A stretch of 7,566 nt of DNA from a virus (Duplodnaviria; Heunggongvirae; Uroviricota; Caudoviricetes), in IMG/VR virus record IMGVR_UViG_2681813004_000023. The stretch is one strand, 5' to 3'. Positions 2,150 to 2,612 of this stretch are shown one piece after another; within the stretch, counting starts at the first letter, position 1, and each line of letters begins with the position of its first letter. Under the pieces are notes generated by a model. It saw only the letters and a program-made list of their open reading frames with translations, searched no databases and was not told where the DNA came from. The position numbers were made by a program, and so were the translations under genes.

Positions 2150-2612
2150 AATCAACAAAGCTAAGGTTAGTAATTAAGGGGTTCTCCACGGGTGAGGTGG
2201 AGTGCGTGCGCCGGACACGGGTGAGCATCCGGCATTGACAGTTTACTGAAAGGATATTTCCCTGAAAAGTCAGACCATAACGCGAAAGCGCACGGCGAGG
2301 TAGCTGGTTCATAGATAGCCTGTCGTTAAATTTTCGTCGACCGTGCGCTTCCGGTTGTGGCAATCCGCGAAATGGCGCGGCGGTAAGTATGGCGGGGTTA
2401 TTCCTTCCCCCGTTGAGGACACCGGGTTGTCAGGTTGACCATACGCTTAAGTGACAACCCCGCTGCAACGCCCTCTGTTATCAATTTTCTGGTGACGTTT
2501 GGCGGTATCAGTTTTACTCCGTGACTGCTCTGCCGCCCTTTTTAAAGTGAATTTTGTGATGTGGTGAATGCGGCTGAGCGCACGCGGAACAGTTAAAACC
2601 AAAAACAGTGTT
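2150..2612 (+). other. GC-rich structured noncoding island (candidate sRNA or cis-regulatory RNA/DNA element)
   Basis: No supportable ORF on either strand. 10-bp perfect inverted repeat AAGCGCACGG(2286-2295)/CCGTGCGCTT(2341-2350); 9-bp inverted repeat GGGTTGTCA(2424-2432)/TGACAACCC(2452-2460); direct repeat CACGGGTGAG at 2187-2196 and 2216-2225; related 20-mers CGCGAAAGCGCACGGCGAGGTA (2281-2302) and CGCGAAATGGCGCGGCGGTA (2366-2385); GC stem GGCGG/CCGCC (2501-2537) followed by CTTTTT (2538-2543). Confidence 0.3.

Follow-up and report, generated by a model that had tools for sequence, protein, structure and literature searches.

What is the role of a stretch of several hundred nucleotides that lies among the early genes of a prophage and carries no gene for a protein? 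The question is raised by a viral DNA of 7,566 nt (Caudoviricetes; IMG/VR record IMGVR_UViG_2681813004_000023; the whole of this DNA is hereafter called the window), of which positions 2150-2612 had been singled out by a first-pass annotation as a GC-rich island of hairpins and repeats without a credible open reading frame (ORF), suggesting either a structured RNA or a protein-binding DNA element. [quoted passage not shown] The locus is thus an old acquaintance, although the first-pass annotation did not identify it. What goes beyond the literature searched is a conserved folded domain directly upstream of DicF that belongs to no listed RNA family. How is the spacer RNA cut into its products? 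What is this domain, and where else does it occur? What might it do?

Identity of the ORF-free spacer

The spacer in its full extent (2145-2712) is 98.6% identical over all 568 nt to the Qin prophage of Escherichia coli K-12, and its part from 2446 to 2679 does not differ from the K-12 sequence at all. Among complete E. coli genomes, 4727 of 5426 have a match to the ydfC-dicB spacer; annotated ydfC and dicB flank this match in K-12 and strain 2013C-4465, the ydfC product having the accession WP_001171942.1 in both. The flanking genes in the window are as follows:

1926..2144, + strand: ydfC-like gene, 72 aa, final coding gene upstream of the spacer (ORF list and synteny)
2713..2901, + strand: dicB, cell-division inhibitor, 62 aa (NCBIfam NF049927, CellDivInhibDicB; annotated as dicB in close relatives)

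The dicB product scores 111 bits against NF049927 (cutoff 100), and the Shine-Dalgarno sequence of the gene, GAGGA, lies at 2701-2705. The active phage Tritos has the same layout, with a misc_RNA 'DicF' annotated at the equivalent position. The locus, dicB and, as described below, DicF are identified here directly. That 2145-2712 is the untranslated ydfC-dicB spacer in the dicBF operon of a Qin-type lambdoid prophage, processed according to the overall scheme given below, can be held with high confidence, which does not extend to the role of the 116-nt domain. The gene order and the DicF sequence are the same as in the dicBF operon of K-12 Qin, whereas the immunity region is different: the repressor is a DicA-like helix-turn-helix domain fused to a LexA/S24-type C-terminal domain (239 aa, compared with 135 aa for K-12 DicA). 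In addition, xis and int are kept in the present prophage, whereas K-12 Qin is cut off by IS2, and DicB is a sequence variant of K-12 DicB.

The spacer would be transcribed rightward within a polycistronic early RNA (ydfA-ydfB-ydfC-spacer-dicB-ydfD) starting from a repressor-controlled promoter directly downstream of the repressor gene (619-1338). No internal promoter has been found in the dicBF operon of K-12 (PMC10448788; PMC9438474). A promoter-like site on the minus strand of the window (2648-2621) is no more than is expected by chance.

The first-pass annotation was right that 2150-2612 has no credible ORF. It is overlapped by small ORFs only, those of at least 30 aa being 2148-2363 (71 aa, TTG start), 2309-2422, 2447-2602 and 2514-2804 on the minus strand, 2343-2438 on the plus strand and, in addition, the dicB reading extended to a GTG start. 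Three of them (2148-2363, 2514-2804 and 2343-2438) matched no NCBIfam family, and the RefSeq annotation under the spacer match is empty in 20 of the 21 near-full-length matches listed. The island is GC-rich in a mild sense only, with a GC content of 0.512 vs 0.481 upstream and 0.413 downstream. The whole spacer folds at -211.9 kcal/mol (z = -4.3 vs shuffles), and the two long perfect inverted repeats that had been described are both present: one of 9 bp, found by repeat search at 2424-2432/2452-2460 (I6), and one of 10 bp, AAGCGCACGG/CCGTGCGCTT, which is the core of a longer inverted repeat at 2283-2295/2341-2353 (I2). Of 300 dinucleotide shuffles, only 0.7% contain two perfect inverted repeats that are 9 bp or longer. 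The related sequences of about 20 nt were recovered as well, as repeats D1 and D2.

DicF and the processing of the spacer RNA

From 5′ to 3′, the spacer contains the following units:

2182..2232, + strand: two small hairpins (2182-2200 and 2209-2232), both loops containing CACGGGUGAG
2275..2360, + strand: long imperfect hairpin B (dG -37.4 kcal/mol, z = -3.46), containing I2
2354..2469, + strand: module C, conserved structured RNA domain of 116 nt (minimum free energy (MFE) fold and covariation)
2476..2497, + strand: small hairpin GUUAUCAA/UUGGUGAC, pairing the DicF 5′ seed region with the linker
2487..2538, + strand: DicF sRNA (Rfam RF00039; cmscan, model positions 1-52 of 52)
2501..2543, + strand: DicF intrinsic terminator, stem 2501-2507/2531-2537 and inner stem, then the T-run TTTTT (2539-2543)
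2547..2696, + strand: module E, structured dicB leader, with a closing 20-bp stem 2547-2566/2677-2696 (I1)

The reading of the stretch as a structured RNA or sRNA was correct. The Rfam model of DicF matches 2487-2538 over its full length (76.7 bits, gathering score 48, E = 4.3e-16) within the ydfC-dicB operon, and the sequence is base for base that of K-12 DicF; the 53-nt DicF annotated in K-12 presumably begins at 2486, one base before the Rfam match. The terminator-like stem and T-run noticed earlier at 2501-2543 are the Rho-independent terminator of DicF with its U-run, delineated from the Rfam consensus structure and from folds; it escaped a simple terminator scan, which allows loops of 8 nt, since its apical part is longer than that. 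In K-12, the 3′ end of DicF arises by early Rho-independent termination (PMC9438474).

Three DicF species have been shown in K-12: one of 190 nt that depends on RNase III, one of 53 nt that depends on RNase E (PMC10448788) and one of 72 nt that is made by RNase III (PMC9438474). The discrete transcript ending near 2545 that had been anticipated is borne out by these species, 2446-2679 being identical to K-12. Nuclease dependence and RNA lengths were thus shown by others; we infer from the lengths which hairpins are cut. The 5′ end of the 190-nt species was placed at 2354 (2543 - 190 + 1) and the 3′ end of the 72-nt species at 2558 (2487 + 71). The ends of the 190-, 53- and 72-nt species land on hairpin B, the 2476-2497 loop and the 20-bp stem of module E, respectively, and all three elements fold far better than shuffles.

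In the proposed scheme, the spacer would act as an RNA, a row of folded units separated by host nucleases. Initially, RNase III would cut near the base of hairpin B to make the 5′ end of the 190-nt precursor, which would be headed by the compact four-helix domain 2354-2469. RNase E would then cut in the AU-rich loop near 2486 to yield 53-nt DicF with its seed unmasked, the 3′ end being provided by the intrinsic terminator of DicF itself. On read-through RNA, RNase III would cut in the stem 2547-2566/2677-2696, leading to the 72-nt form and a short-leadered dicB mRNA. Mature DicF together with Hfq would pair with the mRNAs of ftsZ, xylR, pykA and manX, resulting in a division block. These four are the published targets of K-12 DicF (PMC5069750; PMC9438474), and their pairing with the seed is expected here from identity to K-12 DicF and not from a computed duplex.

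Hairpin B is the probable RNase III substrate, cut near its base (around 2349-2354); the cut has been published as lying 'between 813 and 814', in a numbering other than that of the window (PMC10448788). Its apical part varies among relatives and the stem pairing is retained, and CCAUAAC/GUUGUGG at its base competes with helix P0 of module C. The two small hairpins upstream (2182-2232), which are the source of a 10-bp direct repeat (D4), fold unexceptionally (z = -0.84), and their loop sequences differ among relatives. As for the RNase E step, the segment 2470-2545 folds with z = -4.40 and the published 5′ end of 53-nt DicF, around 2486, falls within the AU-rich loop of the hairpin 2476-2497, where cleavage would expose the seed. 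The seed-masking hairpin is almost invariant, and covariation is therefore uninformative on it. Inactivation of RNase E makes the 190-nt form build up (PMC10448788), as expected if the RNase E step is limiting.

Module E has a fold of -62 kcal/mol (z = -6.35), and its 20-bp stem is the probable RNase III site for the 3′ end of 72-nt DicF and for the short-leadered dicB mRNA. The whole STnc100 model (RF02076) aligns with 2536-2745 at 38.7 bits, which is below the gathering score of 47, and relatives score 31-44 bits. The element also occurs upstream of kil or dicB in Rac-type and Stx phages, and its core aligns with cassettes of other phages (alignment A3). Module E is likely homologous to STnc100/PasD, at a score that places it outside the Rfam family as delimited. 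Unlike the STnc100 sRNA, it is not closed by a terminator but leads directly into the dicB start codon; it is therefore a 5′ leader and not a stand-alone sRNA. PasD, a relative of STnc100, is an Hfq-bound, trans-acting sRNA with RIL-seq targets, and PasA, a processed 84-nt sRNA, co-occurs with it in 96% of genomes (preprint 10.64898/2026.05.13.724894); the joint presence of PasA and PasD may have a parallel here, where a DicF-like sRNA is coupled with an STnc100-like element.

The 116-nt domain and its socket

Rfam and comparative covariation, which the first-pass annotation had named as the means of checking its RNA reading, decide for DicF, and covariation is found upstream of DicF too. There, module C makes up the first 116 nt, the 5′ two-thirds, of the 190-nt DicF precursor, with the following elements:

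2354-2361/2462-2469, + strand: helix P0
2365-2369/2376-2380, + strand: helix P1
2393-2397/2408-2412, + strand: helix P2
2424-2432/2452-2460, + strand: helix P3
2387-2392 with 2439-2444 in the P3 loop, + strand: probable pseudoknot, GUAUGG/CCAUAC

P0 to P3 are all present in the single-sequence MFE structure, and the pseudoknot helix was chosen independently by RNAalifold. Among 80 distinct module C sequences, 95.9% of the cells are paired, compared with 33-60% when the partners are slid, and there are 12 two-sided pair changes vs 5.2 +/- 1.5 in shuffles (0 of 500 reaching that number); covariation was assessed on a MAFFT-only alignment as well. The stems covary and the loops and junctions are invariant, namely CGGNAAG and the P3 loop CAGGUUGACCAU, the invariance of the latter being in part preset by the retrieval pattern, as members were gathered by exact-pattern scans. 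A covariance model of the domain (R1) gives members at least 87 bits and chance sequences at most 18 bits.

Module C has no family in Rfam 15 at E <= 10; the same threshold gave two noise matches only over 2270-2490, and module C of 22 related loci had no Rfam match. No description was found in the literature searched, which did not cover Faubladier et al. (1990), and literal sequence searches of the literature returned unrelated primer matches only. ARAGORN gave nothing that would make the four-way junction a tRNA or tmRNA, and that reading was dropped.

The domain also occurs in the ban-operon leaders of P1, in Stx2c phages, and in Citrobacter, Trabulsiella, Erwinia and Izhakiella. Its contexts differ widely, from the P1 ban leader to lambdoid pL leaders (Stx2c, Ayreon). 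An intrinsic terminator follows about 20-110 nt after it in all 24 downstream sequence classes, and the Qin, Stx2c and P1 types have linkers and terminator stems that are unrelated to one another.

The closing stem of module C behaves as a socket, holding other cassettes, or none, in related phages. The GUUGUGG/CCACAAC stem houses at least four unrelated cassettes (58, 110, 161 and 120-177 nt), one type being homologous to the STnc100-like core (A3). The alternative cassettes were revealed by 80 loci reached via the downstream protein of the Erwinia locus, all without module C. In Rac-type phages, the empty socket is an AAAUA loop. Rac-SA53 and phiSTEC1589-Stx1c have an empty P0 hairpin, yet a DicF-like sRNA is present; module C is therefore dispensable for sRNA biogenesis as such. 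Long RNase III stems also bracket the lambda N leader, sib and T7 early RNA, and rRNA transcripts are processed likewise. As in those systems, long near-perfect stems bracket functional RNAs here and fit the RNase III-dependent ends of DicF; unlike in those systems, the stems hold swappable internal cassettes that share CACAAC/GUUGUG boundaries. We know of no earlier description of swappable cassettes inside such RNase III-type stems.

It is a serious possibility, not far short of an even chance, that module C is an undescribed class of structured phage RNA with a function of its own (in termination, processing or host-factor binding) and one of at least five interchangeable cassettes in the GUUGUGG...CCACAAC stem, the spacer being an array of non-coding RNA modules and not a mere DicF precursor. 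In temperate enterobacterial phages, ranging from lambdoid prophages to P1, the leaders of the early operons may have this socket stem flanked by an RNase III hairpin on one side and a terminator-type sRNA on the other.

Possible roles of the 116-nt domain

What, then, does module C do? Our best guess, a tentative one, is that it is a processing or stability domain: P0 would pair the 5′ end made by RNase III and hide it from RNase E, and the 190-nt form would be a store from which active DicF is made with a delay. This role is opposed by the DicF-like sRNA retained in relatives with an empty P0 hairpin, and invariant loops plus a pseudoknot within 116 nt seem more than the simple protection of a 5′ end would call for. 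Another reading is a payload acting in trans, in which an interchangeable leader cassette persists as a fragment of about 130 nt after the RNase III and RNase E cuts and binds a host or phage factor or serves as a decoy. The invariant loops and junctions beside covarying stems, the unrelated cassettes (at least four) in one and the same stem and the very different contexts, P1 ban and lambdoid pL leaders, all point this way, as does the cassette type homologous to the STnc100-like core, whose PasD relatives are Hfq-bound trans-acting sRNAs (preprint 10.64898/2026.05.13.724894). We nevertheless judge a payload less likely than not, though close behind the best guess: a fragment covering just 2354-2486 was not found in the literature searched, no candidate target or partner was found, and P0 is too short for RNase III, so that the 3′ side of module C would be released by the RNase E cut only.

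It is improbable that module C acts in cis as a processive antiterminator or termination modulator, which would let RNA polymerase pass the DicF terminator and so transcribe dicB and the remaining early-left genes, in functional analogy with HK022 put or Bacillus EAR. The analogy is one of position only: in phages without an obvious N, a conserved folded RNA occupies the leader of an early operon under repressor control, ahead of intrinsic terminators. The terminator within about 20-110 nt in 24 of 24 downstream classes argues for it, and so does the invariable setting, with genes beyond the terminator, in P1 Pban, Stx2c, Ayreon, Erwinia, Izhakiella, Trabulsiella and Citrobacter. An N-like gene is not annotated in the Qin-like phage Tritos, several loci have no N-sized ORF between repressor and terminator, and the N-bearing phiSTEC1589-Stx1c lacks module C; the anticorrelation of N and module C suggested by the last of these is, however, broken by Rac-type phages, which have a DicF-like terminator before kil and neither module C nor an annotated N. 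Moreover, the terminator works in K-12, where the ydfABC-dicF transcript predominates and read-through species appear in an rne-ts strain only (PMC10448788), and the socket may be empty or carry unrelated cassettes. Nor does module C resemble put, an RNA of about 70 nt with two stem-loops (PMC9378689), in sequence or structure: it has 116 nt, four helices and a pseudoknot, R1 found no match in HK022, and its loop motif has three matches there at three mismatches, which equals the chance expectation. putL and putR, RNAs that bind RNA polymerase and thereby suppress pausing and termination, form a pair in the HK022 system, whereas module C occurs once per genome: a single copy was found in the complete Tritos genome (filters off) and one per locus in 100 viral loci, with no second, putR-like copy in either and none in a rightward operon. 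A pairing of GGCGG in module C with the terminator is conserved in neither the P1 nor the Stx2c type, and a boxA-like UGCUCUCUUC, which immediately precedes P0 in the types from Salmonella and Erwinia, is weak, lies in a paired arm and is missing in the Qin type. A ligand- or signal-sensing aptamer (riboswitch or attenuator) controlling the DicF terminator is very improbable: a conserved pseudoknotted domain does lie directly upstream of an intrinsic terminator, and P3 vs the pseudoknot helix and P0 vs hairpin B are potential alternative pairings, but no conserved, mutually exclusive pairing with the terminator was found, its stems and linker differing by type at a spacing of 20-110 nt, and no Rfam riboswitch matched. 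Least credible of all, and hardly to be entertained, is a protein-binding DNA element or a decayed or unrecognised gene. The 10-bp direct repeat CACGGGTGAG is indeed present at 2187 and 2216, with a spacing of 29 bp (a 10-mer repeat within 60 nt arises in 1.3% of shuffles), and there are minus-strand ORFs of 71 and 96 aa; however, the repeat is broken in K-12, where the second copy reads CACGGGTGCG, and these ORFs have neither an NCBIfam family nor annotation in 20 of the 21 RefSeq matches mentioned above. Variation tracks RNA pairing on the plus strand, with many G-U pairs that would be A-C mismatches on the other strand, the P2 indels are not multiples of three, and the region is experimentally known as RNA (PMC10448788).

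The case demonstrates that a genuine sRNA locus can be recognised from sequence alone and is in that respect mostly confirmatory. Processing or stability remains our tentative best guess for module C, which is common to P1 and to prophages of several enterobacterial genera and is present in K-12 itself, where its role is readily testable. Should it govern the rate of DicF release, or the passage of polymerase beyond the DicF terminator to dicB, this would account for the way in which the balance between the two division inhibitors of a toxic prophage operon is set, and the socket with its swappable cassettes suggests a route by which phages exchange non-coding RNA modules.

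DicF and the gene layout of the window

The stretch at 2150-2612 belongs to a true structured-RNA locus, the long-known DicF locus. A structured RNA had been the leading interpretation of the first-pass annotation, and the Rfam search it proposed bears this out: DicF (RF00039) is found at full length at 2487-2538 (76.7 bits; gathering score 48), and the stem and T-run near 2501-2543 that resembled a terminator are real: they form the DicF terminator. The spacer between the ydfC-like gene and dicB (2145-2712) matches its counterpart in the Escherichia coli K-12 Qin prophage at 98.6% identity; the 568 nt contain eight differences, all outside 2446-2679, and identity to strain 2013C-4465 is 99.8%. 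Of 5426 complete E. coli genomes, 4727 contain a match to it (median two copies, maximum ten). The active phage Tritos, in whose record DicF is annotated, shares this layout. Gene calls, NCBIfam and the annotation of near-identical records identify the window as a segment of a lambdoid prophage.

Gene layout of the window
357-572, minus strand: DicC-like Cro gene (gene calls and annotation of near-identical records)
619-1338: repressor with DicA-like HTH and LexA/S24-type C-terminal domain
After the repressor, before the ydfA match: terminator
1611-1766: small gene matching ydfA
1768-1896: small gene matching ydfB
1926-2144: small gene matching ydfC
2713-2901: dicB (NCBIfam NF049927: 111 bits, cutoff 100)
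2898-3086: ydfD-like gene
After the ydfD-like gene: exonuclease VIII-like gene, xis, int

The repeats reported earlier are present: perfect inverted repeats of 9 bp (2424-2432/2452-2460) and 10 bp (the core of repeat I2, 2283-2295/2341-2353), the direct repeat CACGGGTGAG at 2187 and 2216, and the related 20-mers, as two pairs of 17-22-mers. Among dinucleotide shuffles, 0.7% contain two perfect inverted repeats of 9 bp or more and 1.3% have a 10-mer that recurs directly within 60 nt. The entire spacer folds with z = -4.3. The stretch indeed holds no credible ORF. None of three ORFs tested has an NCBIfam family, and RefSeq leaves the stretch unannotated in 20 of the 21 near-full-length matches listed; its supposed GC-richness is mild (0.512; flanks 0.481 and 0.413). 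A coding reading is not supported, nor is a DNA site, including the protein-binding element once suggested.

The repressor scores 80 bits to the DicA subfamily, its HTH being fused to a LexA/UmuD-type S24 C-terminal domain, whereas K-12 DicA has 135 aa and no cleavage domain; the dicBF operon of this prophage may therefore be SOS-inducible, unlike that of K-12 Qin. A probable early-left promoter lies within 1381-1436 (TTGACT at 1401-1406), overlapped by the palindromic operator-like sequence AGGTAAC-TCTT-GTTACCT with a further GTACCTTTTAC half-site upstream, and promoters in some fetched loci are flanked by similar AAAGGTAAC motifs. An Rfam "Trp_leader" hit at 1278-1371 (22 bits, E = 0.6) was rejected, being a strong intrinsic terminator 3′ of the repressor, CCCGCATTCATTGCGGGTTTTT. 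The exonuclease VIII-like gene carries an internal tandem duplication of about 274 bp at 3632-4191 (3632-3816 and 3906-4090 are 99% identical, 3817-3905 and 4103-4191 83%). Its length is not a multiple of three and the ORFs are now 3182-3937 and 3690-5927, whereas the closest relative has one unsplit 826-aa ORF; either variant copies recombined unequally and left a pseudogene, or the assembly is at fault.

A conserved RNA domain upstream of DicF

BLAST against phage and plasmid records reveals that the spacer is modular and that its parts travel separately. Phage phiSTEC1589-Stx1c has 2165-2359 and 2499-2697 with the middle absent, Rac-type phages have 2533-2697 upstream of kil, and 2354-2477 occurs alone in Stx2c phages, phage Ayreon, a Salmonella record, and P1 and P1-like plasmids. 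The P1 copy is part of the leader of the ban operon, about 45-140 nt past the C1-controlled Pban, and overlaps the annotated "dicF-like region". Aligned copies of this part have compensatory changes, which the comparative check proposed in the first-pass annotation was meant to look for. The domain at 2354-2469 is here called module C.

Helices of module C
2354-2361/2462-2469: P0
2365-2369/2376-2380: P1
2393-2397/2408-2412: P2, of variable length with a pyrimidine-rich loop
2424-2432/2452-2460: P3
2387-2392 with 2439-2444: probable pseudoknot

Pairing holds for 95.1% of cells when the sequences are aligned with MAFFT; with slid partners the figure is 32-62%. Two-sided changes affect 11 pairs, where shuffles give 4.6 ± 1.5 (0 of 500). 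A model-aligned set of 80 distinct sequences gives 95.9% and 12 two-sided changes, values biased towards the structure because this alignment was fitted to it. Covariation sits in P0, P2 and P3; P1 varies on one side only, and in the pseudoknot a single pair covaries, passing from U-A to C-G through U-G intermediates. RNAalifold on the MAFFT alignment independently selects the pseudoknot helix, extending it to GGU-AA-GUAUGG/CCAUAC-GCY, and single-sequence MFE folding recovers P0-P3. The abundant G-U pairs show that the RNA is the plus strand. Rfam gave no match over module C at E ≤ 10, nor in 22 related loci, and ARAGORN found nothing.

An exact-pattern scan with the invariant loop GGTTGACCATNCGCNTNAGTG gave 120 viral contigs and 37 genome matches, and a covariance model was built from 72 distinct sequences; true members score at least 87 bits, and matches of the pattern that arise by chance reach 18 at most. 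True members were found in Escherichia species, Shigella, Citrobacter, Trabulsiella, Erwinia tracheiphila and Izhakiella. Most are close relatives, and the invariance of the loop is partly a selection effect, since all were retrieved by BLAST or by the exact loop pattern. Full-scoring E. coli-type copies in four metagenome-assembled genomes labelled Bacillota, Veillonella parvula, Proteobacteria and Collinsella (L157, L158, L161, L163) are most likely mis-binned E. coli prophage contigs.

Module C occurs once per phage genome and, in every locus inspected, within a repressor-controlled early operon with operon genes past the terminator. An intrinsic terminator, mostly of the form UUUGGCGG...CCGCCCUUUUU, follows about 20-110 nt 3′ in all 24 downstream sequence classes, only some of which have the DicF seed. 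Stx2c-type (L005 38-226, minus strand) and Citrobacter (L162 1630-1815, minus strand) prophages with module C also have C4 antisense RNA and isrK, by Rfam matches over threshold, across the immunity region from it, an arrangement that gives these lambdoid phages a module like immI of P1/P7.

Swappable cassettes in early leaders

Rac-SA53, vB_EcoS-666R9 and phiSTEC1589-Stx1c lack module C and have a bare P0 hairpin, GGUUGU-AAAUA-ACGAC, at the unchanged position. A further 80 loci were retrieved via the protein encoded downstream of module C in Erwinia, and the covariance model found no module C in them; in many, the same GUUGUGG...CCACAAC stem encloses other inserts (58, 110, 161 or 120-177 nt), and every insert has a linker and then a terminator after it. 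The 120-177-nt type aligns (alignment A3) with the core of the window's dicB leader, and this leader and hairpin B (2275-2360) likewise have CACAAC/GUUGUG-type bases.

Many early leaders among loci L174-L253 share a unit, located about 250-550 nt before the matched gene (for instance L178 2230-2340), that consists of ACCACCGCGCCUGAUGUGGUUAAAAGCAGGC and, after it, a terminator-type sRNA (CCCUGUUCUGGCGG...CCGCCAGCCUUUUU). The hairpin looks like a boxB-type site; a related AAAAGCAGGCACACAAC lies upstream of hairpin B in some E. coli prophages.

The dicB leader has a sub-threshold STnc100 match (38.7 bits against 47). This STnc100-like element (window 2536-2745; L003 2842-2961; L015 2256-2370) always lies directly upstream of a toxic or division-inhibiting gene (dicB in the window, kil for Rac-type phages and Stx phages, the TerB-like tciA for P1-type elements), which suggests a leader for such genes and not merely a stand-alone sRNA. 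STnc100 has been linked to the EPEC sRNA PasD, which occurs together with the processed sRNA PasA in 96% of genomes (2026 preprint 10.64898/2026.05.13.724894), paralleling the pair of DicF and the STnc100-like element here; the preprint mentions neither DicF nor module C.

Proposed processing map and possible roles of module C

Transcription of the K-12 operon starts at dicBp, which lies upstream of ydfA, no internal promoter having been found; the 5′ end of a 190-nt DicF species requires RNase III, a 53-nt species requires RNase E, and the 190-nt form builds up when RNase E is inactivated (PMC10448788). The 3′ end is made by early intrinsic termination or, alternatively, by RNase III cleavage of the full-length RNA, giving a 72-nt form (PMC9438474). 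We infer the positions of these species on the window from RNA length. The 190-nt 5′ end would fall at 2354 (2543 - 190 + 1), the base of hairpin B, which is long and imperfect (dG -37.4 kcal/mol, z = -3.5). The 53-nt 5′ end would lie near 2486, where a small hairpin (2476-2483/2490-2497) has an AU-rich loop; in this hairpin the linker is predicted to pair with the DicF seed, and RNase E cleavage would thereby unmask the seed. The dicB leader is closed by a 20-bp stem, 2547-2566/2677-2696 (dG -62 kcal/mol, z = -6.4), and the 72-nt end would be in its 5′ arm, at 2558 (2487 + 71). GUUGUGG at 2354 has two options: pairing upstream it closes hairpin B, and pairing downstream it closes P0.

What does module C do? 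We tentatively prefer a processing or stability domain, in which P0 would hide the RNase III-made 5′ end and slow the RNase E step, in agreement with the build-up of the 190-nt form. That it is a payload RNA acting in trans is possible though doubtful, and would agree with the cassette pattern and the invariant loops. The position ahead of a terminator in N-less operons fits a put- or EAR-like antiterminator, but the Rac-type phages, the single copy, the empty sockets (closing stems without a cassette) and the working terminator in K-12 weaken this reading and make it unlikely. A riboswitch is very improbable, as a conserved alternative pairing with the terminator is absent. The literature searched, which did not extend to the 1990 primary DicF and the P1 genome papers, yielded no description of the domain or of the cassettes. 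The residual novelty of the locus is the conserved domain upstream of DicF together with the swappable-cassette architecture.
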